Positions 6,995-27,671 of a stretch of 64,000 nt of DNA are shown piece after piece. The position numbers and the translations under genes are program-made. Each line of letters begins with the position of its first letter. Positions within the stretch are counted from its first letter, which is position 1. This DNA is from Nannocystaceae bacterium ST9 (lineage in GTDB: Bacteria > Myxococcota_A > Polyangia > Nannocystales > Nannocystaceae), in NCBI GenBank assembly GCA_048320885.1, contig JBLWFJ010000001.1, positions 1,605,642 to 1,669,641 on the forward strand. The letters are read 5' to 3'. Under the pieces are notes generated by a model. It saw nothing but the letters and a program-made list of their open reading frames with translations. It was not told the DNA's origin and made no database searches.

Positions 6995-7129
6995 GCGTGC
7001 TCCCACCCACCGAGGGGTCTTCACGCTCGGGAGTAACAGCGAGAGATCGCCGGCCGCAACAAATCGGCGCTGGCGATCCGCCGATCGACTTGCGTCGAAA
7101 ACTCGGTCGACTCGGGCTCGCCCGCCAGC

Positions 7130-8068
7130 ATGCGTCCCGTGCCCGCCAACAAGCACACCGTCCTCGCCCCGCCCTCGGAGCCTCGCTCGACCCTCTTGCC
7201 CGCCGCCCGGCCCGCCCGAGTCACGAGCGCGCAAGCGAGCCCCGCTTCGGTCGGCGCCGGACCCCAGCCGACCGACTGGTGGCGCTCGCCCGACGGCCGG
7301 GTCCGGCTGATCCACGGCGACAGCATGGAGGTACTCGCGGCCCTGCCCGAGCGCAGCGTCGACGTGATCTTCGCCGACCCGCCCTACTTCTTGAGCAACG
7401 GCGGAACCACCTGCCAAGCCGGCAAGCGAGTCAGCGTCGACAAGGGCGGCTGGGATCGCAGCCGCGGCGCCGAGGACAACCACGAGTTCAACCGCAGCTG
7501 GCTCGAGGCCTGCCAGCGGGTGCTGAGCGACGACGGGACCATCTGGGTCTCGGGCACCGCCCACGTGATCTTCTCGGTCGGCTACGCGATGCAGCAGCTC
7601 GGGTTCAAGCTGCTCAACGACGTGGTCTGGGAGAAGCCCAACCCGCCGCCCAACCTCTCGTGCCGCTACTTCACGCACAGCACCGAGCTGATCTTGTGGG
7701 CCGCCCGCGGGCGCAAGAGCAAGCATCACTTCGACTACGCCGCGATGAAGCAGCGCAACGGCAACAAGCAGATGAAGAACGTCTGGCGCTTCACCGCGCC
7801 GAGCAAGACCGAAAAGCAGCACGGCCGGCACCCGACCCAAAAGCCGCTCGGCCTGCTCGAACAGATCCTGCGCTCGAGCTGCCCGGCGGACGGGCGCGCG
7901 CTCGATCCCTTCAACGGCAGCGGCACGACCGGGGTCGCGGCCGCCAAGCTCGGCCTGCGCTACGTCGGCATCGAGCTCGACCCCGAGTACCTCGCGCTCA
8001 GCAAGCGGCGGCTGCTCGAGGCCGTGCCCGACTGGCAGCTCGAGCCGCGCGTGGCCGCGGTGGGCTGA
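7130..8068 (+). CDS. DNA methyltransferase (N6-adenine/N4-cytosine, N6_N4_Mtase family)
   Basis: DPPY motif (IFADPPYF), HPTQKP motif and a C-terminal SAM-binding FNGSGTTG. No adjacent restriction endonuclease, so it appears solitary. Confidence 0.85.
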   Translation: MRPVPANKHTVLAPPSEPRSTLLPAARPARVTSAQASPASVGAGPQPTDWWRSPDGRVRLIHGDSMEVLAALPERSVDVIFADPPYFLSNGGTTCQAGKRVSVDKGGWDRSRGAEDNHEFNRSWLEACQRVLSDDGTIWVSGTAHVIFSVGYAMQQLGFKLLNDVVWEKPNPPPNLSCRYFTHSTELILWAARGRKSKHHFDYAAMKQRNGNKQMKNVWRFTAPSKTEKQHGRHPTQKPLGLLEQILRSSCPADGRALDPFNGSGTTGVAAAKLGLRYVGIELDPEYLALSKRRLLEAVPDWQLEPRVAAVG

Positions 8069-8070
8069 AC

Positions 8071-8712
8071 GTGGCGACGTCCATCGAGATCGCCGAGCAC
8101 CCGCTGCTGCTGCTGGGTGGATTCGAAGCCGTCTTCCCGGCCCCGCTCGCCGAGCTGACCAGCCCGGCCGAGCTGCGTGCGCTGCTGAGTCTGGCCGCCG
8201 CGAGCCCGCTGCCGCCGACCGACGAGGCCATGCGCAAGCAGGTCCGCGAGCTGCTCCGGCACGGCGGGTTCAAGCCGAGCGGGCGCAGCAAGCCGGCGTC
8301 CGAATTCCTGCTGCGCGCCGCGTCGCAGGGCGAGCTCGGCTCGATCAACCTCGCGGTCGATCTGTGCAACGTCGCCTCGCTGCACTCGGGCCTGCCGATC
8401 AGCGTGGTCGATCGCGATCGCGTCGAGTCGCCGCTGAAGGTCGCGATCGCCGAGCCCGGATCGAGCTACGTGTTCAACGCCTCGGGTCAGACCATCGCCC
8501 TCGACGGCCTGCTCTGCCTGCACGACGCGGCCGGCCCCTGCGCCAACCCGGTCAAGGACAGCCAGCGGAGCAAGACCCACGCGGGCACGATCGCGACGAT
8601 CTGCGTGGTCTGGGGCTGCCGAGCGCTGGCCGAGCGCAGCGCCGCGACGACGAATTGGTATCGAGCGCTGCACGAGCGCTTCGGCGCGCAAGTCCGCGAC
8701 ATCGCCGGCTGA
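8071..8712 (+). CDS. B3/4 domain-containing protein
   Basis: GTG start 3 nt after the MTase stop. The sequence KPSGRSKPASEFLLRAASQGELGSINLAVDLCNVASLHSGLPISVVD is typical of B3/4 (PheT-like) domain proteins. Confidence 0.7.
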   Translation: MATSIEIAEHPLLLLGGFEAVFPAPLAELTSPAELRALLSLAAASPLPPTDEAMRKQVRELLRHGGFKPSGRSKPASEFLLRAASQGELGSINLAVDLCNVASLHSGLPISVVDRDRVESPLKVAIAEPGSSYVFNASGQTIALDGLLCLHDAAGPCANPVKDSQRSKTHAGTIATICVVWGCRALAERSAATTNWYRALHERFGAQVRDIAG

Positions 8713-8744
8713 GCCCGCGGCGAGCGGTGCTAACCTGGGCGCGG

Positions 8745-9404
8745 ATGAACTTCTTCGCCCACGCCCTGATCGCCGCGCGCCGCCGCGAAGAGCCAGCGTG
8801 GATCCTCGGCTCGATGCTGCCCGACCTCGCGAGCATGGCCGGCCTTCGCCTGCACGGCGTCGCCAAGCCCGGCCGCTTCAGCCCGCTGCTCGGCGAGGGC
8901 GTCGACTTCCATCACACCTGCGACGACGCCTTTCACGGCGCGCCGATCTTCGTCGAGCTGATGGACGGTGCCCACGCCGAGCTCGAGGCCCGCGGGCTGG
9001 GCTCGGGTCCGGCGATGGCGATCGGTCACGTCGGCGTCGAGCTGCTGCTCGACGGCTGCCTGGTCGCGCGCCACGGCGTGCCGATCTGCTACCGCGAAGC
9101 GATGGAGTTGGCCTCGATCGCCGGCGAAGATCTGAATTGGCGCGACGACAGCCACGAGCACCCGCAGCGCTGGCAGGCGCTGTGCGGGCGACTCCGCGGC
9201 GCGCCGGTGCCCGAGGCCTACGCCGATCCGGGCTTCGTCGCCGATCGGCTGATCCAGATCCTCGCGCGCCGTCCGATGCTGGCGGTCGAGCCGGGCAACG
9301 AGCCCGAGGTCCACGCCTGGGCCAAGCGCTGGGTGCCGAAGGTCGCCGCGCGCGAGCTGGCGCTGCTCGATCAGGTCGAAGACCGACTCGCTCGCGCACG
9401 CTGA
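8745..9404 (+). CDS. ACP phosphodiesterase-like protein (AcpH/DUF479-like)
   Basis: N-terminus MNFFAHALIA resembles AcpH MNFLAHLHLA. An HxHxxxD-like segment is present (VDFHHTCDD). The listed ORF has a junk R-rich N-terminal extension, so the call uses the internal ATG. Confidence 0.5.
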   Translation: MNFFAHALIAARRREEPAWILGSMLPDLASMAGLRLHGVAKPGRFSPLLGEGVDFHHTCDDAFHGAPIFVELMDGAHAELEARGLGSGPAMAIGHVGVELLLDGCLVARHGVPICYREAMELASIAGEDLNWRDDSHEHPQRWQALCGRLRGAPVPEAYADPGFVADRLIQILARRPMLAVEPGNEPEVHAWAKRWVPKVAARELALLDQVEDRLARAR

Positions 9405-14168: not shown

Positions 14169-14293
14169 GCCGGCAAGGTAACAGCTTCGCCTTGATCGAA
14201 CGACCACAATTCCCATGCACCGCGTCGCGAAGGTAATGCCAGTGACGATCGAAGCGCTCGACCGCGATCGTGGATTCATGCGAAGGTCCGCTC

Positions 14294-15967
14294 ATGGTCA
14301 CGCGTCGCCCCGTCGAGCTCCTCTCGCTCGGCCTGTTCGCCTTGCTGGCCGCTTGCCAGGGCGATGGTCGAGGCAGCACCTTCGGCGGCACCTTCGACGA
14401 AGCCGGTGAGGGCGATGGCGACGGCGACGACGAGGGCCTCGACGACGGCGAGTACGCGGCCCCACGCCTGCGGATCCTGCTGGCCCGGCAATACGTCGCG
14501 ACGATCGGCGATCTGCTCGGACCGCAGGCTGCCCAGGTCGCGAGCACGCGCGCCGACGTGACGCTCAACGGCTTCGACGCGATCGGGGCCGCCCAGCTCG
14601 CGCTGACCAGTCAAGACATCGACGTCTACGAGAAGTCGGCCGGCGACGTCGCGGCCGCGGCCGTGGCCACGCCCGGCGCGATCGATCCCTACCTGAGCTG
14701 CACGCCGATCGAGCCGGGCGACGCCGAGTGCATGCGCAGCTTCGTCGACGCGTTCGGATCGCTGGCCTGGCGGCGCCCGCTCGACGAGAGCGAGCGAACC
14801 CGCTGGGCCGACGTCGGGCTCGCGGCCGCGCTCGACTTCGGCGACTTCGACAAGGGCGTCGAGTTCGTGATCGCCGGCATGTTGCAGTCGCCGAATTTCA
14901 TCTACCAGGTCGAGATCGGTGAGCCCGATCCCGACAACCCGGGCCTGCGCCGGCTGAGCGGGGCCGAGGTCGCGACTCGAATGTCGTACTTCCTGCTCGA
15001 CACCACGCCCAGCCGCGAGCTGCTCGAGGCCGCGGCCGCCGGCGAGCTCGACACCGCCGAGGGCGTGCGGGCCTGGGCCGAGAGCATGGTCCTCGATCCG
15101 CGGGCTCGCTTCGCGTTCGACAATTTCTTCGAAGAGGTCCTCTACCTGCGCAAGCTCGACGAGACCGCCAAGGATCTCGGCACCTACCCGAGCTGGTCGC
15201 CCTACCTGGCCGACTCGATGCGGGTCGAGACGCTCGCGCTGGTCGACGACGTGATCTGGCTCGAGGACGGCGACTATCGCGACGTGCTGACCGCCGACTA
15301 CACCTTCGTGAACGAGGCGCTGGCCGAGCACTACGGCATCGCCCACCCCGGCGGCACCGGCTTTCAGAAGGTCGCGCTGCCGCCCGGCGAGAAGCGAGGC
15401 GGCATCTTCGGTCACGCCAGCCTGCTCTCGGTGCTCGCCCACGTCAGCAGCACCTCGCCGACCTTGCGCGGCAAGTTCATCCAAGAGCGGATGATGTGCA
15501 CCTCGATCCCGCCGCCACCGCCCGGGGTCGTCACCGATCTGCCGAGCGGCGCCGAATACAAGACCATGCGCGAGCGCCTGGCCGCCCACCAAGAGCAGGA
15601 GACCTGCGCCATCTGCCACACGATCATGGATCCGCCCGGGCTCGGGCTCGAGAACTACGACGGCGTCGGGCAGTTCCGAACCATGGAGAACGGCGTGGTG
15701 ATCGACACCAAGAGCGACCTCGACGGCGATCCCTTCGACGGCGCCGCCGAGCTCGGCGCGGTCCTGCGCGAGCGCCCGAAGTTCTCGCTCTGCACCGTGC
15801 TCAACCTCTATCGCCACGCGACCGGCCACGTCGAGCTCTCGGGCGAGCTCGAGCGCCTGGTCGGCGTCGACGAGTCGTTCATCGCCGCCCAGTACCGATT
15901 CAAGTCGGCGCTGGTCGAGCTGGTCGCCAGCAAGGCGTTTCGCTTCGTCGGGGAGCAGGACCAATGA
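14294..15967 (+). CDS. DUF1592/DUF1588-family lipoprotein with CxxCH heme-binding motif
   Basis: Lipobox LLAAC. CAICH motif. Long acidic N-terminal linker. Stop overlaps the next gene's start (ATGA), the conserved pairing with DUF1552. Confidence 0.7.
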   Translation: MVTRRPVELLSLGLFALLAACQGDGRGSTFGGTFDEAGEGDGDGDDEGLDDGEYAAPRLRILLARQYVATIGDLLGPQAAQVASTRADVTLNGFDAIGAAQLALTSQDIDVYEKSAGDVAAAAVATPGAIDPYLSCTPIEPGDAECMRSFVDAFGSLAWRRPLDESERTRWADVGLAAALDFGDFDKGVEFVIAGMLQSPNFIYQVEIGEPDPDNPGLRRLSGAEVATRMSYFLLDTTPSRELLEAAAAGELDTAEGVRAWAESMVLDPRARFAFDNFFEEVLYLRKLDETAKDLGTYPSWSPYLADSMRVETLALVDDVIWLEDGDYRDVLTADYTFVNEALAEHYGIAHPGGTGFQKVALPPGEKRGGIFGHASLLSVLAHVSSTSPTLRGKFIQERMMCTSIPPPPPGVVTDLPSGAEYKTMRERLAAHQEQETCAICHTIMDPPGLGLENYDGVGQFRTMENGVVIDTKSDLDGDPFDGAAELGAVLRERPKFSLCTVLNLYRHATGHVELSGELERLVGVDESFIAAQYRFKSALVELVASKAFRFVGEQDQ

Positions 15968-17394
15968 CCACGCCACGCAAGCCACGCAAGCCGCTCAAGC
16001 CGCTCACTCCCCTGATCCGCGTGGCCGGCCGCGGCATGAATCGCCGCACGCTGCTTCGCGGCATGCTCGGCGGAGGTCTGGTCGCGCTCGCCCTGCCGCC
16101 GCTCGAGGCCATGCTGAATTCCAACGGCACCGCGCTGGCCAACGGCTCGCCCCTGCCCCGCCGAATGATCACCTGGTTCTTCGGCAACGGCTGCGCGCTC
16201 AAGAACACCGGTGATCCCAACGCCGGCATTCGCTTCCAGCCCGACGCCCAGGGGCCCGGCTACGACGTCACGCCCCAGCTCGCGCCGCTCCAGGCCGCCG
16301 GCGTGATCGATTATTGCCACGTGCTCTCGGGCTTCGACATCAAGGCCGCGTCGCAGCATCGCCGCGGTCACCACGACGGCTGCACCTTCTTTTCGGGCTA
16401 TCCCTTCATCGAGCTGCCGGCCGACGGCGCCAACTATTCGTCGAAGTTCGGCGGCCCGACCGTCGATCAGGTCGCCGCCAACGCGGTCGGCGGCCAGACC
16501 TTCCTGCCCTCGATCCAATTGCAGGTGTCCAAGCGGATCGTCGGCAGCGAAGGCCCGACCCTGCAATATCTCTCGCACAAGGGCCCGGATCAGCCGCTGC
16601 CGCAGACCGCCAACCCGCAAGAGGCGTGGAACAAGCTGTTCGCCAGCTTCACCGCCGAAGACGACCCCGCGACCCCGCATCGGCTCGCGGCCCTCGACGC
16701 CGTCAGCGAGGACGCCAAGGCCCTGCAGATGCGAGTCGGCGCCGCCGACCACCAGCGCCTCGAAGCCCACCTCGAGTCGGTCGCCCAGATCCGCAGCCAG
16801 ATCGCCGCGCTCGCCCCGGTCTGCACCACCCCGCCTCAGCCCGGCGAGACCAACACCGACATCGACGGCAACGAGCCGATCATCGCCGTCAACGACGTGA
16901 TGAGCAGCCTGATCGCCCTGGCCTTCTCCTGCGACATCACCCGAATCGCCAGCGTGCAATTCACCGGCTCGGTCGGATTCACCGTATTCAACGACCTCGG
17001 CATCAACATGGGTCACCACGACATGACCCACGACGCCCTGCGCAACGAGGACGTCGACGCCGCGACGATCTACACCATGCAGCGCTTCGCGACCCTGCTC
17101 GCCGCATTGCGCAACACGATCGAGGGCGACGGCAACCTGCTCGACAACTCCTGCGTGCTGCTCGGCAGCGACGCGTCCTCGGGCCTCACCCACGGCGTCT
17201 ACGACCAACCCTGCATCGTCGCCGGCAAGGGCGGCGGCGTGCTCAAGTACCCCGGCGTCCACTACCGCTCGCCCAACAGCGAGAACAGCTCGAACATCCT
17301 GCTCTCGGTGCTGCAGACGGTCTGTCCAGAGGCGACCGAGGTCGGCGGGACGCTCGGGTACTCGAACACGCCGGTCTCGCAGATCATGGCGTGA
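15964..17394 (+). CDS. DUF1552-family protein with twin-arginine signal
   Basis: MNRRTLLRGMLGGGLVALALP Tat signal. Translationally coupled to the upstream DUF1592-like gene. Confidence 0.75.
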   Translation: MTTPRKPRKPLKPLTPLIRVAGRGMNRRTLLRGMLGGGLVALALPPLEAMLNSNGTALANGSPLPRRMITWFFGNGCALKNTGDPNAGIRFQPDAQGPGYDVTPQLAPLQAAGVIDYCHVLSGFDIKAASQHRRGHHDGCTFFSGYPFIELPADGANYSSKFGGPTVDQVAANAVGGQTFLPSIQLQVSKRIVGSEGPTLQYLSHKGPDQPLPQTANPQEAWNKLFASFTAEDDPATPHRLAALDAVSEDAKALQMRVGAADHQRLEAHLESVAQIRSQIAALAPVCTTPPQPGETNTDIDGNEPIIAVNDVMSSLIALAFSCDITRIASVQFTGSVGFTVFNDLGINMGHHDMTHDALRNEDVDAATIYTMQRFATLLAALRNTIEGDGNLLDNSCVLLGSDASSGLTHGVYDQPCIVAGKGGGVLKYPGVHYRSPNSENSSNILLSVLQTVCPEATEVGGTLGYSNTPVSQIMA

Positions 17395-19055: not shown

Positions 19056-22000
19056 TCACGGCGCGGGCGCGAACATCCGCGCGAGCTTGGCCTCGACCGC
19101 GACTCGAACCGGGTGGCTGGCGTCGATCCGTTGAAGCAGGGCGCTCAGCTCGGGCAACACCTGGCTGCCGGCCATGACTTGTCCGGTGCCGAACAGACTG
19201 GCGACGTAGCCGGGGCCGGCCTGGACCTGCTCGAAGGGCAGGTCGGCGTCGCGGGCAGCCTCCCAGGCGTCGCGCGCCCAGACCAGCGCCTCGCTCGGCT
19301 GCTTGCGCGCGAACACGTCGAGCTCGGCGAGCAGGATCAGACTCGGGATCGTCCGCGGCGTTCGGCGCGAGCCGAAGAGCTGGGTCTCGGCGGCGATCGA
19401 CGCGTGCAGCAGGCCGTGCGCCTCGTCGACCCGGCCGCGATGCACGAGCAGGGTCGCGAGCGTGTGCATGGTCATGGTCACCTCGGCGTGCACGTCGGTC
19501 GCATGGATCTCGCGCTTGATCGCCAGGCTCTCGCGCAGCAGCGACTCGGCCTCGTCGAAGCGAGCTTGGCCGAGCAGGGCGCTGGCCAGGCCGTGCAGGG
19601 TCGAGGCGACGTCGGCGTGGCGACGGGTCGCGAAGATTCGAACTTGCAGCTCGAGGTTGGCGCGGTAGCAGGCCTCGGCCTCGTCGTACTTGCCCTGCGC
19701 GAGCAGGGCGTTGGCCAAGCCGTGCGCGACCGCGGCGAGCTCGGGATGATCGACCTGGCCGTAGGCTCGCTGCTTGATCGCCAGCGCCTCGCGGGCGAGC
19801 TGCTCGGCCTCGGGCGCCCGCCCGCGATGAAAGGCGAGGTTGGCCAGGCCGGCGAGGCCCGCCGCGATGTCGGCGTGCTCGCGCGAGCCGTGCACGCGCT
19901 CGAGGATTGCGATCGACTCGCGATAGGCGGCTTCGGCCCGGTCGTACTCGCCCGATCCAGACAGCGCGTTGGCGAGCCCGTGCAGGGACGAGGCGACATG
20001 CGGGTGCTCGCGGGTGCCGAACACCCGCTGCTTGACGACGATGCTCTGCTCGAACGCCGCGATCGCGTCGGCGTACTTGCCTTGGCAGTCGAGCACGTCG
20101 CCGAGCCCTCGCAGCACGGTCGCGAGCGAGGGGTGATCTTCGTCGCCGACCAGCGAGCGCAGGATCGCGGCGGCCTCGCGATAGTCGGCCTCGGCCTCGC
20201 CGAGCTCGCCGAGCTGAGCCAGCGTGTTGGCCAGGCCGTGCAGCGCGAGCGCGACCTCGGGGTGCGCGTGCCGACCGAAGCCCTGCTCGATCTTGGCGAT
20301 CGCCTCACGATAGTTGGTCTCGGCCTCGCGCAGCTTGCCTTGCCGCAGCTGGGCCGACGCGAGCCCGGCCAGCGCGATGCCGAAGTCGGGGCGAGCCTGC
20401 AGACCGAGGCGCTCTTCGATCGCCAGCGCCTGGCGATACTCGGCCTCGGCCTCGCCGTACTTGCCTTGCCCGAGCAGGATGTTGGCCAGACCGGCGTGCG
20501 AGATCGCCAGGTCGGCGGGGCTCTGCCCGGCCTCGCCGGCCAGCGCGATCGATCCGCGAGCGTGGACCTCGGCCTCGCGGTAGCTGCCCATCGACTGGGC
20601 CGCGGCGCCGCAGTGGTGCAGCCAGGTGTCGCGCTGCGCGAGCGGCCAGTCGACCTCGCGCAAGCCATCGAGGAACTCCTTGCGCAAGCGGTAGAGCCCG
20701 GCTTGGTGCATGGTCGACGAGATCGCGATCATCACCCGCTCGGCGCCCTCCCACTGCTCGGCGGCGAGGTAGTGGCCGAGCGCCTCCTGCAATCCGGCGA
20801 GGTCGCGCTCGAGCATGCCGCACTGCTCGCGATGTCGACCGAGCAGCGCGCGACCGGACTTGGTCCAGGCCGGGCGTCCGGCGAACTGCTTGCCGACCGA
20901 CTCGCGGACCAGCGAGTGCAGGGCCCACGCGTCCTCGCCCGCGAAGCGACCGAGCAGACCGAGCGCGGCCAGGCGGTCGTCGCCGCTGCCGAGCCGCTCG
21001 ATGATCGCCCGCGGGACCGGCCGCTGGATCGCCGAGCACTCGCCGAGCAGGGCGAGCTCGTCGGGCGCGAGACAGGCGATCAGGCTGCCGAGCGCGAGCC
21101 GCTGCTCGACCTTGGCCCCGAGCCCGGCCAGCGCGGGATCGAGGTAGGCCGCGCGCATGATCTCGACGTCGCCGTCTTCGTCGAGCGGCGGCGCGCCCGG
21201 GAGCTTGCGCAGGCTGATCAGGCCGTTGATCCAGTCGACCGTGCCGGGGTGACCGTCGATCCGCTCGGTCAACTGCTCGCGCAGCGGCTCGGGCAGGCGT
21301 TGAAGCGGGTGCTTCCACGCGGTCATGCGATAGATCTCGGCCTTGCTGCACGGCGGGATCGACTCCCAGCAGCCGCACTCGCCGGCCGGCAGGTGGCGCG
21401 AGGTCATCAGCAGGGTCGTGTCGCCCTCGATCTCGCGCGCGAGGCAGGCGAAGAACCCGACCAGCGCCTCGTCGCGCCACTCGACGCCGCGCTCGGAAGA
21501 CGCCGCGCTCGCCTGCATCGACTCGAGGTTGTCGAGGTAGAGCACCCCGCCGCGAGCCAGGCCGAGCAGGAGTCGAGCGAGCGCCTGCGGGCGATCCTCG
21601 GCCCGGTCGAGCGCCTCGAGCCGCGCGTCCCAGTCCGCGGGCTTGCGCGGATGCTTGCCGATCACGCGCCGAACCAGGCCGAGCAGCCAGACGAAGGGCG
21701 TGGTTCGAGTGGCCTGCTCGACGTAGTCGCCGATCGGCAGGGCGATCACGTCGCCGGCGTCCTCGCTGCAGATCAGCGCGAAGCGGGTCATGGTCGTGGT
21801 CTTGCCGAGCCCGCCGAGCCCGTGGAGCCCGAGCGCTCGCTCGCCTCGCTTGCGGAGCTTGCGAAGCCGCGCGAGCAGCCGGCGACGACCGATGAAGCCG
21901 TGCTCGAGCACCGGCAGGCCCTCGGCGCCGGCCAGCTCGATCCGCTCGGGTCGCAGCACGTCCTCGAGCTGCTTGGTCTGGCGCAGCTTGCCGGCGACCA

Positions 22001-23960
22001 GGTCGCGATCGGGCCCGCGATGATAGAGCGCGAGCATCGACCAGGCGAAGGGGTAGCGAACGAAGCCGAGCGGGGTGTCGAGCACCTCCTTGCTGCTCAG
22101 CCGCGCGCGACGAACGGCCTCGACGGTCCGCTCGGTCGCGACCAGCTCGCGAAACAACGCGCGATCGATCCGGGCGATCAAGACGTCGGGGATCGGCCCG
22201 AAGTAGCCGAGCACCTGCGGGATCCCGCGGCGATGAAGTTGAGCGGCGATCGAGACCTCGCGGGCCGAGGCCGCATTCGAAGCCACGTCGCCCTCGGAGG
22301 CCACGCCCACGCTCGCCCCGTGCCCACACGAGAGCCAGAACGCGGCCGGAAGGCGCGAGGCGGCGGCGGCCAGGCGATCGCAGACGCTGGCGATCTCGAT
22401 CGGCGCGGGCCCGCCGTCCTCGTCCTCGAACAAGAGCTCGCCCGGCGCACCGCGGCCCGAGAAATGCAGGATCGTCGGCCGCTCGATCGCCCGCACGGCC
22501 TCGACCAGATCGTCGAGCGTGCCGAGCTCGGTGAAGCGCACGTAGCCGCGCAGCGGATCGAGGGCGCGGGCGATCCGGTACGAGGCGGCCTCGAGATCCT
22601 GGCTCGAGCCCTCGTCGGTCTCGGGCGCGGCCACGTGCGCGACGATCCGCGGGACGGTCGAGTCCTCGGGCAGCGGCTGCGCGCCGGGGACCACGACCTC
22701 GCGGATCAGGTTGAGGCTGCCGTTGCCGACCGGGAACTCGCCACGCACGCAGACCAGCTCCCAGGGCAGCAGCAAGACCGCGTCGACCTCGGCCGGATCA
22801 CCGTCGACGCGCAGCGCGAGGCTGGCCGGCTCGCTCATCGCCGCCGACCCGATCAGCTCGACCAGCCGCGCGGCGGCCTTGCTCGGCAACACGCCGAACA
22901 GCCGCTCGCCGATCGCCCGCGCGCGGGTTCGAATCCCGGCCGCGAGCGCCTCGCTCTCCGAATCGAGCTCGCCGTGGCGGGTGCACGAGAGCCCGCGCGC
23001 GGCCAGGGCCTGCAGCTCGCCGAGTTCGACCAGCGAGAGCTTCGGCGGATCGATCTCGACCCGCTCGCCGAGCGCCTCGACGGTCCAGCGCGGCCCGGGT
23101 CGGATCACCAGCGCGAGCTCGCGGGCGCCGGCGATCACCACCTCGTCGGCCAGCGCCTCGAACCAGCGCGGCAGCGTGACGAAGTCGGGCAGCTCGACTC
23201 GCTGGATGTGCTTGAGCACCTCGGCGTAGCTGCGCCCGTCGGTCCACTTCAGCGCCTGCAAGGTCGCGCCCTCGCCCGGGCCGATCACCGCGCGCCACAG
23301 GTGGAGCAGGCGACGCTGCTCGGCCGGCAACTCCGAGGTCCAGCGCAGCAGCCGAGGATCTTGCAGCGAGCAGCCGACGAAGAGCACGCGATTTTGCCGG
23401 AGCAGCACCTCGAGCTCGTGGATCGCCAGCGGATGGCGGCGCTCGTAGAGCGAGTAGCTCTCGCCGGTCAGCACCGCCGAGGTCCAGTCGTCCCAGGTCC
23501 CGTGGATCGCCAGGTAGAGCGGCAGGCCCTCGCCGGCCAGGTGCAGGCCGCGGTCGAGCTGCGAGAAGCGATGCGGCGCGCCGATCATCTCGCAGGCGCG
23601 CCGCAGCAGCAGGTCGTAGCAAGTGTCGATGATCGCCTTGAAGCGGCCGGCGGCGATCAGCTTGGCGAGGTGGAAGTGCAGCGGGCCCGGCTGGGGCGTG
23701 CGGCCCTGCTTGCGAAACTCCTGCTCGAGGAAGCGATGCAGCTCGCCCTCGCCGAGGTTCTGCACGAAGTCGTCGATCCACGCGTAGGGATCGTCGGACG
23801 CGGGCGGCTGCCAGTTGTCGGCCTCCTTGCGGCGCAGCGCGTCGACCAGCGCCCACAGGGTCGGCAGCGGTGGGTCGGCTTGGCAGCTGGCGCCCGCGCC
23901 GAGCCAGAGGATCGGCCGGCTGTCGTTGCTGAACAGGCCGCGGATCTTCTCGACGCTCAC
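19056..23960 (-). CDS. SIR2 - CHAT (caspase-like) - NB-ARC/STAND NTPase - TPR multidomain protein (NLR/Avs-like), about 1634 aa
   Basis: SIR2-like N-terminus: ILWLGAGAS, TCYD, VLFVGCSLQDPRLLRW. CHAT: LPWELV, ILHFSGRG, FWLSCGHGAS, LGYFGPIPD. P-loop GLHGLGGLGKTTT plus Walker B VLYLDNLE. About 10 TPR_12-type repeats (HPxVAxxLxxLAxxLxxQGKYxEAE). Start set at GTG 23960 (VSVEKIRGLFS) with GAGG 4 nt upstream; the upstream 64 codons of the listed ORF are R-rich junk. Confidence 0.85.
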   Translation of the reverse strand: MSVEKIRGLFSNDSRPILWLGAGASCQADPPLPTLWALVDALRRKEADNWQPPASDDPYAWIDDFVQNLGEGELHRFLEQEFRKQGRTPQPGPLHFHLAKLIAAGRFKAIIDTCYDLLLRRACEMIGAPHRFSQLDRGLHLAGEGLPLYLAIHGTWDDWTSAVLTGESYSLYERRHPLAIHELEVLLRQNRVLFVGCSLQDPRLLRWTSELPAEQRRLLHLWRAVIGPGEGATLQALKWTDGRSYAEVLKHIQRVELPDFVTLPRWFEALADEVVIAGARELALVIRPGPRWTVEALGERVEIDPPKLSLVELGELQALAARGLSCTRHGELDSESEALAAGIRTRARAIGERLFGVLPSKAAARLVELIGSAAMSEPASLALRVDGDPAEVDAVLLLPWELVCVRGEFPVGNGSLNLIREVVVPGAQPLPEDSTVPRIVAHVAAPETDEGSSQDLEAASYRIARALDPLRGYVRFTELGTLDDLVEAVRAIERPTILHFSGRGAPGELLFEDEDGGPAPIEIASVCDRLAAAASRLPAAFWLSCGHGASVGVASEGDVASNAASAREVSIAAQLHRRGIPQVLGYFGPIPDVLIARIDRALFRELVATERTVEAVRRARLSSKEVLDTPLGFVRYPFAWSMLALYHRGPDRDLVAGKLRQTKQLEDVLRPERIELAGAEGLPVLEHGFIGRRRLLARLRKLRKRGERALGLHGLGGLGKTTTMTRFALICSEDAGDVIALPIGDYVEQATRTTPFVWLLGLVRRVIGKHPRKPADWDARLEALDRAEDRPQALARLLLGLARGGVLYLDNLESMQASAASSERGVEWRDEALVGFFACLAREIEGDTTLLMTSRHLPAGECGCWESIPPCSKAEIYRMTAWKHPLQRLPEPLREQLTERIDGHPGTVDWINGLISLRKLPGAPPLDEDGDVEIMRAAYLDPALAGLGAKVEQRLALGSLIACLAPDELALLGECSAIQRPVPRAIIERLGSGDDRLAALGLLGRFAGEDAWALHSLVRESVGKQFAGRPAWTKSGRALLGRHREQCGMLERDLAGLQEALGHYLAAEQWEGAERVMIAISSTMHQAGLYRLRKEFLDGLREVDWPLAQRDTWLHHCGAAAQSMGSYREAEVHARGSIALAGEAGQSPADLAISHAGLANILLGQGKYGEAEAEYRQALAIEERLGLQARPDFGIALAGLASAQLRQGKLREAETNYREAIAKIEQGFGRHAHPEVALALHGLANTLAQLGELGEAEADYREAAAILRSLVGDEDHPSLATVLRGLGDVLDCQGKYADAIAAFEQSIVVKQRVFGTREHPHVASSLHGLANALSGSGEYDRAEAAYRESIAILERVHGSREHADIAAGLAGLANLAFHRGRAPEAEQLAREALAIKQRAYGQVDHPELAAVAHGLANALLAQGKYDEAEACYRANLELQVRIFATRRHADVASTLHGLASALLGQARFDEAESLLRESLAIKREIHATDVHAEVTMTMHTLATLLVHRGRVDEAHGLLHASIAAETQLFGSRRTPRTIPSLILLAELDVFARKQPSEALVWARDAWEAARDADLPFEQVQAGPGYVASLFGTGQVMAGSQVLPELSALLQRIDASHPVRVAVEAKLARMFAPAP

Positions 23961-24001
23961 GCCTCGATCGTAGCGCCCGGTGGGTTGGTTACGATGCGCG
24001 A

Positions 24002-24952
24002 GTGAGCGTCGATCGTCGGACCTGGCTCGCGGGTGTGTCGACCACGATCGGCTGCTTGGCCTGCGAACGCGCGGCTCCGCGGACGGCGAGCGAACGCGAG
24101 CCGACTCCGAGTGAGGATCGCGAGCCTTTGCCACCCGGCCACGAACCCCCACCGTCGGGTCTGCCGATCGGCGACGAGCCTGGCCAGGATCTCGCGAGCT
24201 TCCTCACCGAGCCCCGCCGCCCGATCACGGCCGAGCGGCGCACGCTCGAGCTCTTGCCGATCGGCGAGTACCCGCGCGGCTTCGTCGTCGAGTACGAGCG
24301 CGTGCACCTGGTCCGCAGCCCCGAGCTCGAGCTGCTGCGTCGCTTCGCCAGCGCGTGGTTCGGCCTGCCGGTGCGGGTCGCCGCGGCGCTCTCCGACGAG
24401 CTGCTCGAGACCCAGGCCCCCCAGCGCGAGTTCGAAGGTCGTCGGCAGTTCGACGCCGAGGCGCTGCTCGGCACGCTCGCCCCGCTGCGATCACCCGACG
24501 CCCACTCGCTGCTCGGGTTGACGCTCGAGGATCTCTGGTCGCCCTCGCTCGAAGGTCAGTGGGTGTTCGGGCTGGCGGCGGTCGAGCGCGGGCTGGCGAT
24601 CCACAGCATGCTCCGCTACGACCCCGGCCTGCGCAGCGCCGACGAGCGCCCACCGGACTTCGAGCGAATCATCCGCGATCGTGGCTTGCGGGTGCTGGTC
24701 CACGAGCTCGGTCACCTGCTGGGCATCCGTCATTGCGTGCACTTTTGTTGCGTGATGAATCCTACTGCGGGGCTCGCCGACCTCGATCGCCTGCCCTTGC
24801 GACTATGCCCAATCTGTCTCGACAAGCTGAACGCGGCGACCGGCGTCGATCGACTCGCTCGCGCGCTCGCGCTGCGAGACCTCTACGCCGAACTCGGGAT
24901 GATCGTGGAGCGCGACTGGATGAATGCACGAATCGCCGAAGCGACTCCATGA
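24002..24952 (+). CDS. Archaemetzincin-like zinc metalloprotease (peptidase M54-like), Tat-lipoprotein
   Basis: HELGHLLGIRHCVHFCCVMN...LCPICLD matches the archaemetzincin HExxHxxGxxHC...C...CxxC signature. N-terminus DRRTWLAGVSTTIGC is a Tat motif with a lipobox. Divergent from the STAND gene. Confidence 0.75.
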   Translation: MSVDRRTWLAGVSTTIGCLACERAAPRTASEREPTPSEDREPLPPGHEPPPSGLPIGDEPGQDLASFLTEPRRPITAERRTLELLPIGEYPRGFVVEYERVHLVRSPELELLRRFASAWFGLPVRVAAALSDELLETQAPQREFEGRRQFDAEALLGTLAPLRSPDAHSLLGLTLEDLWSPSLEGQWVFGLAAVERGLAIHSMLRYDPGLRSADERPPDFERIIRDRGLRVLVHELGHLLGIRHCVHFCCVMNPTAGLADLDRLPLRLCPICLDKLNAATGVDRLARALALRDLYAELGMIVERDWMNARIAEATP

Positions 24953-25056: not shown

Positions 25057-25629
25057 ATGCGAGCGAACCTGATCCCCCTGATGCTCTTCGTCGCCCCCTT
25101 GCTGATCAGCCCGCCGACCCGGGCGGAAGGCCCCGATTCGCCCGATCTGTGCGCGGAGCGGGTGCTCGACGTCACCGGCGAGGTGTTCTCCGACTCGGTC
25201 GGCCAGACCATCTCGCGCTTTTGCAAGCCGCGCGTCGATCCGCCGATTCTCGATCGAGACGTCTGCTGCGTGATCGGCGATTCGGCGCGCTGCAAATTGC
25301 CGAATGCCGAGGGTCGCTGCACGAGCGGCATGAAGTTCTGGTGCGAGTATGGCGAGATCGATGGATCGACCGTGGACTGCTTCCAGGATGGCCCCGACGC
25401 CTGCGAGCAGGGCCATTGTTCGTCGCCGGACGAGATCGACGCGAATACCCATCTGTTCGCGGACTCGAGCTGGATCTGCTGCAACGACGCGGGTGACGAA
25501 TGCGTGTATGTCGGCGAAGGCGGCGCTACCCCGCCACCCGACGCCCTGGCCTGCTACAGCGGCAACATCACGATCTGCAGTTGGGGCGCGACTAACGAAG
25601 ACGGGACGGTCGACTGTCTCGGGACTTGA
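25057..25629 (+). CDS. Secreted cysteine-rich protein (18 Cys, 190 aa)
   Basis: Signal peptide MRANLIPLMLFVAPLLISPPTRAEG. GC3 is lower than in neighbouring genes. No known motif. Confidence 0.65.
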   Translation: MRANLIPLMLFVAPLLISPPTRAEGPDSPDLCAERVLDVTGEVFSDSVGQTISRFCKPRVDPPILDRDVCCVIGDSARCKLPNAEGRCTSGMKFWCEYGEIDGSTVDCFQDGPDACEQGHCSSPDEIDANTHLFADSSWICCNDAGDECVYVGEGGATPPPDALACYSGNITICSWGATNEDGTVDCLGT

Positions 25630-27022
25630 GCTCGATCGACTCGCTCGACTCGGACGCCTCGGCGCGTCGGTGAAGCCGGCGCGCCTCGTCTTCACCTTCG
25701 GCGTCGCCCTGCTGCACGGCCAGCGTGATCACCTGCAAGGTGATCAGCTGGGCGACGCGGCTGGCCTCGTCGCCCTGCGAGCTCGGGGTGCCCTCGGCCG
25801 AGACCACCGCGACCTCGGCCAGCGCGAGCGCCCGATCGAGCGGGACCCCGGCGAGCCGCTCGGCCGCCTGGAACTCTTCCCAGGCCGCGAGCGAGTGGCC
25901 GGCCCGAAGCATGGCGATCGCGTGATCGACGTTGGGCTCGTCCTTGGCCGCCGTCGCGGCGGCCAAGCCGGGCCCGAGCAGTTCGTGCATGTGGTAGCCG
26001 GAGCCCAGCGAGAGCCCGACCACGGCGATGACCGCGGTCGAGAACGCCACGCCACGCAGGTCGGCCAGCACCCGAGTTCGCGAGCGAGGGGCCGACTCGT
26101 GAATCGCCCCGAGCACCTCGAGCATGCGGGCCATCGTCGGTCGGGCCGCGATCTCGTCGGCGAGCGCGAGCCCCAACACTTCGAGCACCGGCGAGGGCAG
26201 CCGCGAGCGCACGCGATCGCGCGAGACCGAGAGCTCGAGCGCGACCATGGTCGCGCGAGCGAACGCGAACACGTCGCCGGCCGGCACCCACACGCCGTGA
26301 TCGCGCTCGGGCGGCATGTAGGCGATGGTCCCGGCGATCGGCCCGAACTCGCGCGGGCGACCGGCCAGGCCGAAGTCGGCCAGCAGCGCCCGCTCGTCGT
26401 GGATCAGGATGTTGTTGGGCTTGACGTCGCCGTGAACGATGCCGAGCGCGTGGCACCACGCGAGCGCGCGGCCGGCCTCGAGGCAACGAGCGAGCACCTC
26501 GGGCCACGCGTGGGTGCGGGCGTAGTCGGTCAAGGTCCGGCCCTCGCACCACTGCAAGACGATGTACGTGCGATCTTCGAACACGCCGGCGTCGTGGACC
26601 AAGACCACGTTGGGATGCGCGACCGCGGCGAGCATCCGCGCCTCCTTGGCCGCCGCGGTGTCGAGGATCTTGAGCACGATCGGCCGACCGAGCACGCGAT
26701 CGACCGCGAGGTAGACCCACGCCGACTTGCTGGTCGTGCTCGACAGTCGCTTGCACAACAAGAAGCGCAGCGGGTGCTGCTGCTCGAGCAGCCACTCGGC
26801 GGCCTCGTCGTGCGGCAGGTCGAGGCAGCGCGCGACCGCGGCGACGATCAGCAGGTCGCCCGAGCGATGCGCGTCGGGCAGCTCGGGTCCCCACCACAGC
26901 GGCAAGTCGGATCCGATCGGGCGCGAGCCGGACTCGCTCGAGCTCGACCCCGAGGCGAACCCCGACGAGTGCGGGAGCAGGGCCTCGCCCTCTGGCTCCT
27001 CGACGCGCGCCACTTCCGACAT
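25592..27022 (-). CDS. Membrane Ser/Thr protein kinase (degenerate glycine loop)
   Basis: HGDVKPNNIL catalytic loop, DFGLA, PPE. A C-terminal TM helix is followed by an extracytoplasmic tail. Start at internal ATG MSEVARVEE. Divergent from the ECF sigma gene. Confidence 0.75.
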   Translation of the reverse strand: MSEVARVEEPEGEALLPHSSGFASGSSSSESGSRPIGSDLPLWWGPELPDAHRSGDLLIVAAVARCLDLPHDEAAEWLLEQQHPLRFLLCKRLSSTTSKSAWVYLAVDRVLGRPIVLKILDTAAAKEARMLAAVAHPNVVLVHDAGVFEDRTYIVLQWCEGRTLTDYARTHAWPEVLARCLEAGRALAWCHALGIVHGDVKPNNILIHDERALLADFGLAGRPREFGPIAGTIAYMPPERDHGVWVPAGDVFAFARATMVALELSVSRDRVRSRLPSPVLEVLGLALADEIAARPTMARMLEVLGAIHESAPRSRTRVLADLRGVAFSTAVIAVVGLSLGSGYHMHELLGPGLAAATAAKDEPNVDHAIAMLRAGHSLAAWEEFQAAERLAGVPLDRALALAEVAVVSAEGTPSSQGDEASRVAQLITLQVITLAVQQGDAEGEDEARRLHRRAEASESSESIELKSRDSRPSRLR

Positions 27023-27155
27023 TCGCCGGAATGTACCCCATCCGCGGGCCTGGCCACTGTCCCAACGATCAAGATGGCCAAACCCGCGCGATTGGGCCGC
27101 AGGAGGGGCTTCACGCGCCGCTTGGGCAGCCGGCCCGACCGTGGGATAGTCGGCC

Positions 27156-27671
27156 ATGGCCGAGTTCCCGGGCGACGACACCATCCGCTCGTTGAGTCGT
27201 GAATTGTTGGTCTACCTGCGCCGCAAGATCCCGCCGGACACCGACGCCCGCGACTTCGTCGGCGAAGTCTGGGTCCGCGCAGCCGACCGCGAGCCGCGAG
27301 TCGGCATCCGAGCGCTCTGCTTCGGGATCGCCAATCGGATGATCGCCCAGCTCTACCGCGAGCGCCGAGGCCCGCGTCAGCGCGGCCACACCGTCGACGA
27401 CGCCACGCTCGCGGCCATGGCCAGCCAGGGCACCGGGCCCGCGACCGCGATGATCCGCAGCGAGGAGCGCGAAGCCCTGCAGGCCGCGCTGCACTCGATC
27501 CCCGAGGTCTATCGCGAGGTCGTCGCGCTCAGCCTCGCCGGGCTCGACAACTTCGAGATCGCCGAGAAGCTCGCGCTCGAGTACCACACCGTTCGCTCGC
27601 GACTCTCGCGGGGCCTGGCCAAGCTGCGGGCCGAAGTCGCCGCGAGCAAGCTGATCGTCGACACCAACTGA
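27156..27671 (+). CDS. ECF-type RNA polymerase sigma-70 factor
   Basis: Region 2 (VGEVWVRA) and region 4 HTH (NFEIAEKLALEYHTVRSRLSRGLAKLR). Confidence 0.8.
   Translation: MAEFPGDDTIRSLSRELLVYLRRKIPPDTDARDFVGEVWVRAADREPRVGIRALCFGIANRMIAQLYRERRGPRQRGHTVDDATLAAMASQGTGPATAMIRSEEREALQAALHSIPEVYREVVALSLAGLDNFEIAEKLALEYHTVRSRLSRGLAKLRAEVAASKLIVDTN

Follow-up and report, generated by a model that had tools for sequence, protein, structure and literature searches.

Among the described bacterial proteins that come closest to the one studied here is Avs5, a SIR2-STAND protein (EfAvs5) of the AVAST antiviral systems. It likewise carries on one chain a SIR2 fold at the N terminus, a STAND NTPase in the middle, and a sensor of helical repeats at the C terminus, and ligand-induced oligomerization is the expected route of activation (PMC11897194). 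Asn141 of EfAvs5 is essential, as found with the N141A mutant (PMC11897194). In DSR2, mutation of the catalytic/NAD+-binding pair (N133A/H171A) abolishes NADase activity (PMC11087589), and the dyad H375/C422 is required in SAVED-CHAT (H375A/C422A; 10.1101/2023.06.23.546230). Surveys of bacterial STAND proteins describe single effectors, for instance SIR2 or caspase-like domains. To our knowledge, and no systematic search was made on this point, the bacterial STAND/NLR-like receptors described so far carry one effector head each. Here we describe a gene in a 64,000-nucleotide stretch of the genome of Nannocystaceae bacterium ST9 (contig JBLWFJ010000001.1; the whole stretch is called the window below) whose product carries a SIR2 fold and a CHAT fold in tandem upstream of one STAND module. 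When this protein was compared with DSR2, SAVED-CHAT, and more than 100 relatives, three of its four catalytic positions were found to be replaced, and its canonical activities have very probably been lost. The gene and its modules, which follow one another in one chain in the order SIR2 fold, CHAT fold, STAND NTPase, and TPR array, are as follows.

19056..23960, minus strand: whole gene for the SIR2-like/CHAT-like/STAND NTPase/TPR protein, 1634 aa; GTG start at 23960, stop at 19056-19058
23127..23960, minus strand: SIR2-like (SIR2_2) domain, aa 1-278 (Pfam, phmmer, Foldseek)
23886-23900, minus strand: GAGAS NAD-binding loop, aa 21-25, kept
21981..23126, minus strand: beta-rich linker and CHAT (caspase-fold, clan CD) domain, aa 279-660 (Pfam, family profile, AlphaFold2/Foldseek)
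20661..21908, minus strand: STAND P-loop NTPase module (nucleotide-binding domain, helical and winged-helix parts), aa 685-1100 (family profile, motifs)
21798-21821, minus strand: Walker A motif GLGGLGKT, aa 714-721
21528-21545, minus strand: Walker B motif VLYLDN, aa 806-811
19059..20660, minus strand: C-terminal TPR sensor-type array, aa 1101-1634, about 9 to 10 repeats (TPR_10/TPR_12)

The minus-strand open reading frame (ORF) of 1634 aa is the true gene, with no indication of a frameshift within it. It is uninterrupted from 19056 to 23960 and remains open upstream as far as 24152 in the ORF list and translation, and the start residues VSVEKIRGLF... are common to this gene and its closest database relative, P0006, which is of nearly equal length. 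The G+C content of the window is about 70%, and long ORFs occur on both strands at this locus. Between 19100 and 23900, one phase alone shows a G+C content at third codon positions (GC3) of about 0.9, and the pattern at codon positions 1 and 2 is that of a minus-strand gene, with no switch of frame. The first-pass annotation, made from the sequence alone, had placed four modules in a single polypeptide, and the single coding frame bears this out. An antisense plus-strand ORF at 19113..24005 (1630 aa) was rejected as a shadow of the high G+C content: its translation, unlike the protein-like one of the minus strand, is of low complexity, rich in Ala, Gly, Arg, and Leu, and it lies in the wrong GC3 phase. 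A promoter and terminator scan was uninformative.

The folds of the N-terminal half were established by several lines of evidence. First, the SIR2-like N terminus that had been proposed was recovered by Pfam SIR2_2 (aa 109 to 217; 53.6 bits against a cutoff of 24.5), by phmmer against the PDB (DSR2, E=4e-5), and by structure. An AlphaFold2 model of aa 1 to 690, built from a 35-sequence family alignment (mean predicted local distance difference test score [pLDDT], 85), had the SIR2 domain of DSR2 and ThsA as its top Foldseek matches in the PDB (E of about 1e-11 and TM of about 0.7, on chains holding SIR2 only). DSR2 and ThsA are the best matches of aa 1 to 278 in both sequence and structure, with a GAGxS loop, a TxYD frame, and the catalytic His in common. 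Second, a CHAT domain is present, again as proposed. The Pfam match was marginal (aa 441 to 643; 26.0 bits against a cutoff of 24), and phmmer with the CHAT region against the PDB returned only spurious prenyltransferase matches. A profile of the family's CHAT region matched the CHAT domain of PDB entry 8tl0 at E=1e-7, and a model of aa 280 to 690 (pLDDT 89, predicted TM score 0.89) retrieved SAVED-CHAT (8TL0), separase, Csx29 TPR-CHAT, gingipain, and caspase-3/-9 in Foldseek. SAVED-CHAT, the Csx29 TPR-CHAT protein of Craspase, and separase thus share the caspase-like CHAT fold with this protein. The expected trigger differs: here it would be the STAND NTPase with its TPR array rather than SAVED and cA3 or a CRISPR effector.

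The remaining two modules were assigned in the same way. About 9 to 10 TPRs are found at the C terminus, in line with the 10 or so first counted; TPR_10 (E=8e-54) matched nine stretches and TPR_12 (E=5e-52) eight, at about aa 1150 to 1520. The NTPase had been called a STAND NB-ARC module. Its STAND P-loop with Walker A and B motifs was confirmed, but not its membership in NB-ARC: Pfam NB-ARC PF00931 reached E=0.33 (10.6 bits against a cutoff of 23.5) and covered the P-loop alone, AAA_16 at aa 689 to 845 scored 29.1 bits, under its cutoff of 32.6, and phmmer with the NTPase region found nothing in the PDB. The family NTPase profile matched the PH0952 STAND-TPR structure 6mfv at E=2.5e-9, at the P-loop and the winged helix, and matched plant NB-ARC and NACHT proteins weakly (E=0.06 to 0.3; plant NLR Roq1, E=0.056). 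On these matches, the NB-ARC label is too specific for the module. The PH0952/MalT-type STAND proteins (PDB 6MFV) are its closest solved relatives for the NTPase and winged helix, and they too carry a TPR sensor C-terminal to the NTPase. However, PH0952 and MalT lack SIR2 and CHAT heads, and the output of MalT runs through a DNA-binding domain.

Differences from the described defense proteins are also apparent at the level of architecture. Unlike Avs5, the window protein carries a CHAT domain between SIR2 and NTPase and a Cys at the position equivalent to N141; it matches no PADLOC Avs model, and its NTPase is nearest to the PH0952-type STAND. PADLOC returned only a generic TPR match and weak matches to ThsA-type SIR2, and NCBIfam gave TPR-type matches and a Dsr2 sirtuin match (E=0.088), all short of cutoff. 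DSR2 and ThsA lack a STAND module and use other sensor domains, and where they have N133 and N112-113, respectively, the window protein has Cys114.

The active sites were mapped from alignments of sequences and profiles, together with the positions of secondary-structure elements, and the four catalytic positions were placed as follows.

23619..23621, minus strand: Cys114, codon TGC, at the catalytic/NAD+-binding Asn position (DSR2 N133, EfAvs5 N141, ThsA N112/113)
23502..23504, minus strand: His153, codon CAC, the SIR2 catalytic His, kept (DSR2 H171)
22452..22454, minus strand: Arg503, codon CGC, at the CHAT catalytic His position (SAVED-CHAT H375)
22323..22328, minus strand: Cys545-Gly546, codons TGT GGG, with Gly546 in the CHAT catalytic Cys column (SAVED-CHAT C422)

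In the phmmer alignment with DSR2, IDTCYD falls on ITTNYD (N133) and LAIHGT on LKVHGD (H171). In the alignment of the family CHAT profile with 8TL0, "HFsGhG" falls on "LHFIGHG" and "yLsschg" on "VLNACC," and the His and Cys of 8TL0 lie 47 residues apart, exactly as in the published H375/C422 dyad. The motifs of the relatives, HFxGHG and LSxCHG, align with H375 and C422 of SAVED-CHAT; where relatives read HFSGHG and LSxCHG, the window protein reads HFSGRG and WLSCGHG, and its dyad positions are thus Arg503 and Gly546. Cys545 is a clade-specific neighbor one position before the catalytic column. The CHAT His/Cys dyad had been read as intact in ILHFSGRG and WLSCGHG, and that reading does not hold, given that the catalytic columns contain Arg503 and Gly546. 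For the SIR2 domain, the fold and the catalytic His proposed at the outset are there, but the Asn is not.

These replacements are unusual for the family. TNYD, GHG, and xxC[HYD]G motifs were found in 9 of 9 relatives from GTDB genomes and a metagenome. N114, H153, and C546 are at least 90% conserved in a 35-sequence alignment, as are H503 and C546 in a 50-sequence alignment. Among 80 metagenome loci, all had the CHAT His, by a search pattern that permitted H or R, and 24 had the upstream TNYD motif, with the Asn kept in all 24 that carried it. A good measure of the departure comes from the 94 columns whose conservation in 33 other members reaches at least 85%. At 12 of these, both the window protein and its orthologue deviate, and the 12 include N114 (100% conserved elsewhere, 33/33), H503 (94%), and C546 (97%), so that three of the four catalytic sites fall within the deviating columns (hypergeometric P=0.006). 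Separately, Asn138 in the SIR2 domain (nucleotides [nt] 23547-23549) is Gly in both the window protein and the orthologue and Asn in 97% of sequences elsewhere.

Two accounts in which the protein is still an enzyme have to be weighed against these residues. The first is that of the first-pass annotation, which had predicted two outputs: an NLR/Avs-like protein with two working effectors, in which triggering would lead SIR2 to deplete NAD+ and CHAT to cleave substrates. Both folds are present and well modeled, the GAGAS loop and His153 are kept, and the four catalytic residues are all present in most of the family, which makes dual activity a plausible ancestral state. However, the equivalents of DSR2 N133 and SAVED-CHAT H375 and C422 are Cys, Arg, and Gly, and Ala at those positions abolishes activity or defense in DSR2, EfAvs5, and SAVED-CHAT. 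With three of four catalytic residues replaced, the two-output prediction cannot be carried over to this gene, and continued dual activity is highly improbable.

The second is noncanonical catalysis, in which one head or both would still be enzymes, with active-site residues moved or changed. For example, Cys545 would act as a shifted nucleophile, or Cys114 would alter the SIR2 chemistry, for instance through a thiol-linked ADP-ribosyl intermediate or through transfer in place of hydrolysis. Cys545 is common to both orthologues and to the nearest intact clade (WLSCCYG). The SIR2 domain, with its GAGAS loop and His153 kept, is also under stronger constraint than any other part of the protein (dN/dS, 0.13 to 0.21; see below). 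On the other hand, the CHAT general base is gone as well, as R503 is found in both orthologues, and H547, the sole His nearby, is Gln in the orthologue. In the caspase fold, the residue at the -1 position should point away from the active site, which also counts against a shifted nucleophile. We know of no precedent for a Cys at this Asn in an active sirtuin-fold NADase, a point on which no search was made and which would speak against altered chemistry. Noncanonical catalysis is thus judged unlikely.

Unlike the heads, the nucleotide switch looks functional. Of the 39 family-conserved NTPase columns, 36 are kept, including Walker A, Walker B D810/E813, R855, GHP (aa 903 to 905), and the winged-helix H1015; G714 to K720 and D810 are conserved across 74 relatives. 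By alignment, the ATPase switch motifs are all intact. The residue that follows GHP (aa 906, nt 21243-21245) is Gly in the window protein and the orthologue and Arg in 89% of sequences elsewhere.

The orthologue provides a test of whether the gene is being maintained. P0006 (1633 aa, from a metagenome) is 76% identical overall and was the sole close orthologue in an exhaustive profile search; its locus, L014, is a JGI metagenome contig. P0006 shares the codons for C114 (TGC) and R503 (CGC) with the window gene and carries an Ala at position 546 (Cys-Ala at 545-546); the inactivating changes therefore predate the split of the two lineages. H547 of the window protein is the Gln of P0006 noted above. 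The two genes differ by a dS of about 0.46, and both are full length over 4.9 kb, with no stops or frameshifts and with 13 of 13 gap columns in frame. The ratio of nonsynonymous to synonymous substitution rates (dN/dS), calculated by the Nei-Gojobori method from this single pairwise comparison, differed among the modules.

SIR2: dN/dS 0.16 (0.13-0.21), identity 92%
Linker and CHAT: dN/dS 0.26, identity 83%
NTPase: dN/dS 0.33, identity 80%
TPR: dN/dS 0.56, identity 57%, the fastest-evolving part

The estimates indicate purifying selection on both copies, strongest on the dead SIR2 and CHAT heads and weakest on the TPRs. Together with the intact NTPase, this pattern argues against pseudogenization and for N-terminal domains that have been retained in a noncatalytic role while the nucleotide switch still works. 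It bears directly on the idea that the gene is a relic, a once-active defense gene that is decaying toward a pseudogene and has no current function. Several active-site losses in one lineage, partial degeneration in other members, a locus that looks frameshifted (L010, below), and the lack of a defense-island context would all fit such decay. However, two lineages separated by a dS of about 0.46 have kept a 4.9-kb ORF with its 13 gap columns in frame, dN/dS is far below 1 and is lowest in the very domains that are dead, the canonical NTPase motifs are intact, and the GC3 bias is uniform. A decaying relic is therefore very unlikely.

The window protein belongs to a SIR2-CHAT-STAND-TPR family that is real and, as far as searched, undescribed. 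A word-indexed homologue search found only five relatives. This reflects the sensitivity limit of that search and not rarity, because an exhaustive hidden Markov model search of 1.84 billion representatives gave 14,104 matches at E<1e-3 and 234 at E<1e-30. SIR2 and CHAT were spanned in one stretch in about 40 representatives (50%-identity clusters) among the matches listed. In GTDB species genomes, eight loci had the full-length fusion, in Myxococcota, Acidobacteriota/Thermoanaerobaculia, and a Nitrospinia metagenome-assembled genome (MAG) of the Nitrospinota, and at least 24 metagenome loci share the architecture. The best relatives are in Myxococcota MAGs; together with the G+C content of about 70% and the PSD/DUF1552-type proteins described below, whose genes are helpful taxonomic and ecological markers, this points to a probable myxobacterium-like source. 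Relatives checked with Pfam had the same order of SIR2_2, CHAT, AAA_16, and TPR. A metagenome scan with the window protein alone confirmed no relative, and one with the family alignment gave the 80 loci mentioned above, none of them a further member of the "dead" clade. Database entries of 10 relatives were metagenomic singletons, and the three that were named were called "TPR repeat protein." In full-text searches of the literature, no paper turned up on a protein that unites SIR2, CHAT, and STAND. The early suggestion that SIR2 and CHAT on one STAND module had not been characterized is consistent with these searches, but the architecture is not unique: it recurs in about 40 clusters at 50% identity, and no paper describing it or assigning it a function was found.

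Nearly all family members keep intact active sites, and for such relatives a dual NADase and protease output is plausible by analogy. However, some variation was apparent, with part of the active sites eroded independently in several members. First, erosion was confined to the CHAT dyad in P0028 (HFSGRG, LSYSE) and P0029 (HFSGPA) of the family alignment. Second, it was confined to SIR2 in P0031, P0042, and P0051, in which the GAG loop and TNYD are altered, and in P0001, in which the His is Tyr. Because some members lost only the CHAT dyad and others only the SIR2 motifs, the two heads may be separable modules. Third, P0014 adds an N-terminal EAD5 domain (PF19957, aa 4 to 114), an adaptor domain typical of conflict systems in multicellular bacteria (Kaur et al. 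2021, PMC8195603), and such extra adaptors tie the family to the EAD/Death-like "conflict systems" of these bacteria. The ORF at L004 has an extra N-terminal extension of about 80 aa without assignment. At a ninth GTDB locus, L010 (8001-10116, in an Acidobacteriota MAG), the SIR2-CHAT match runs over 2.1 kb while the longest ORF is 473 aa, which suggests a frameshifted copy or an assembly error.

Taken together with the residues and the selection estimates, the window protein is probably a pseudoenzyme, an NLR-like sensor or scaffold whose heads serve as a binding or assembly platform, and not a dual-output killer. The heads would act as a platform because canonical chemistry is missing and yet SIR2 and CHAT are the most constrained part of the protein. 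By analogy with STAND biology, the fast-evolving TPR array would bind a protein ligand, either an invader protein or a cellular cue. As in STAND/NLR and Avs proteins, binding would lift autoinhibition, and nucleotide-dependent oligomerization would cluster the N-terminal domains. The clustered dead SIR2 and CHAT domains could then form an interaction or assembly platform, and NAD+ may still be bound as a ligand through the GAGAS loop and His153. In intact relatives, the same oligomerization would plausibly turn on the SIR2 NADase, as in Avs5, DSR2, and ThsA, and the CHAT protease, as in the ordered assembly of SAVED-CHAT.

Most plausibly, a catalytically competent relative or some other partner would be recruited or titrated by the dead heads or would assemble together with them, in the way of cFLIP or plant sensor NLRs. 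The likeness to the pseudo-caspase cFLIP and to plant sensor NLRs with helpers lies in a fold kept under selection, eroded catalysis, and an expected assembly or regulatory function, and it is an analogy only. The iSTAND modules found in ternary systems of bacteria (Kaur et al. 2021, PMC8195603) share this likeness but in reverse, for in the window protein it is the heads that are dead and the NTPase that is intact. A tentative extension, less likely than the platform role itself, is that the protein is a selected "double-dead" bacterial NLR whose partners, paired with it or held in check by it, would be active SIR2-CHAT-STAND relatives or other effectors. Such a protein would be the prokaryotic equivalent of cFLIP or of the sensor/helper NLR pairs of plants, and its family would be one of STAND immune receptors with two effectors that had not been described before.

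Several points weigh against a pseudoenzyme platform. The dead state is shared with one orthologue only, and the selection estimate comes from one pairwise comparison, in which codon bias in a GC-rich genome lowers dS. Cys545 nearby and the kept His153 leave space for noncanonical chemistry. No recognizable defense island surrounds the gene and no PADLOC Avs model matched it, so the immune role is inferred. Finally, a search of the 64-kb window for a paralogue or partner with catalytic activity came up empty, and no neighbor is shared family-wide, so a co-assembly partner is hypothetical.

The family is spread across metagenomes, and its chains place a head of the sirtuin NADase type directly before one of the CHAT protease type. 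Should the intact members prove active, a metabolic and a proteolytic output could both follow from a single sensor. The window copy amounts to a natural experiment in which both active sites were erased but selection has preserved the reading frame, the domain folds, and the ATPase switch, and it points to scaffolding, decoy, or regulatory roles of effector domains in prokaryotic NLR-like proteins. Noncatalytic roles of effector domains are well known in animal and plant immunity and barely explored in bacteria. Annotation at the level of domains alone would mispredict this protein as an NAD+-depleting, proteolytic killer.

The genes next to the SIR2-CHAT-STAND gene raise a further alternative, and they are listed here.

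24002..24952, plus strand: M54 archaemetzincin-like metallopeptidase, HELGHLLGIRHC and a Cys-rich C-terminal tail (Pfam Peptidase_M54, E=1e-10)
25592-27184, minus strand: Ser/Thr protein kinase, 73% identity in L014
27156-27671, plus strand: ECF sigma factor, 85% identity in L014
18623..19054, plus strand: 143-aa ORF, convergent, its end 1 bp away from the stop codon of the SIR2-CHAT-STAND gene; 59% identity in L014 (15849-16271)

The M54 gene is divergent from the start of the SIR2-CHAT-STAND gene across a 41-bp gap, an arrangement repeated in L014, and the N terminus of its protein (DRRTWLAGVSTTIGCLAC) resembles a Tat signal with a lipobox. Divergent flanks had been proposed on both sides of the gene. 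This was right for the M54 archaemetzincin, including its Tat/lipobox-like N terminus, but the 143-aa neighbor is convergent and has no evident signal peptide, and it had no Pfam match. In L014, an extra 315-aa gene with no Pfam match sits between the 143-aa homologue and the big gene. The upstream order of ECF sigma, Ser/Thr kinase, and M54 is common to the window and L014. The kinase and ECF sigma genes beside M54 may form a small regulatory unit; as listed, their ORFs overlap by about 29 bp, and their L014 counterparts lie at 7052-9019.

This arrangement could mean that the protein is a nonimmune housekeeping or developmental STAND-TPR regulator, similar to MalT, AfsR, or PH0952, that acts together with the products of its neighbors, namely the ECF sigma factor, the Ser/Thr kinase, and the M54 peptidase. 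PH0952 is the nearest solved relative of the NTPase, the order of the three genes is conserved in the orthologue locus, and the surroundings are ordinary chromosomal ones. However, the synteny extends to two closely related genomes only and is absent from the eight other family loci, Pfam found no DNA-binding output domain, one relative has the EAD5 conflict-system adaptor, and the rapid divergence of the TPRs fits an arms-race sensor. A nonimmune regulator is accordingly quite unlikely. Neither M54 nor the 143-aa ORF was found next to the eight distant family loci, and no neighbor was common across those loci. The M54 protease and the small ORF, either of which had been offered as a substrate or partner, were rejected as family-level partners, with conservation only in the close locus L014 and in 0 of 8 distant loci.

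The context of the nearest intact relative, P0007 (L015 1524-5831), is different from that of the window, as it lies downstream of a canonical sirtuin gene. That gene (PF02146, 262 aa, L015 681-1469) is on the same strand, 55 bp upstream of P0007, and the two may form an operon that pairs a housekeeping-type Sir2 with a SIR2-CHAT-STAND protein. The wider window contains ordinary chromosomal genes, including an MFS transporter, oxidoreductases, and a GNAT protein. An N6/N4 DNA methyltransferase (PF01555, E=1e-54) is encoded at 7130-8068 on the plus strand, about 11 kb from the gene, and a gene pair at 14270-17394, also on the plus strand, carries Planctomycete-type PSD/PSCyt domains (DUF1592/1588/1595/1585/1587) and DUF1552 (HXXSHH).

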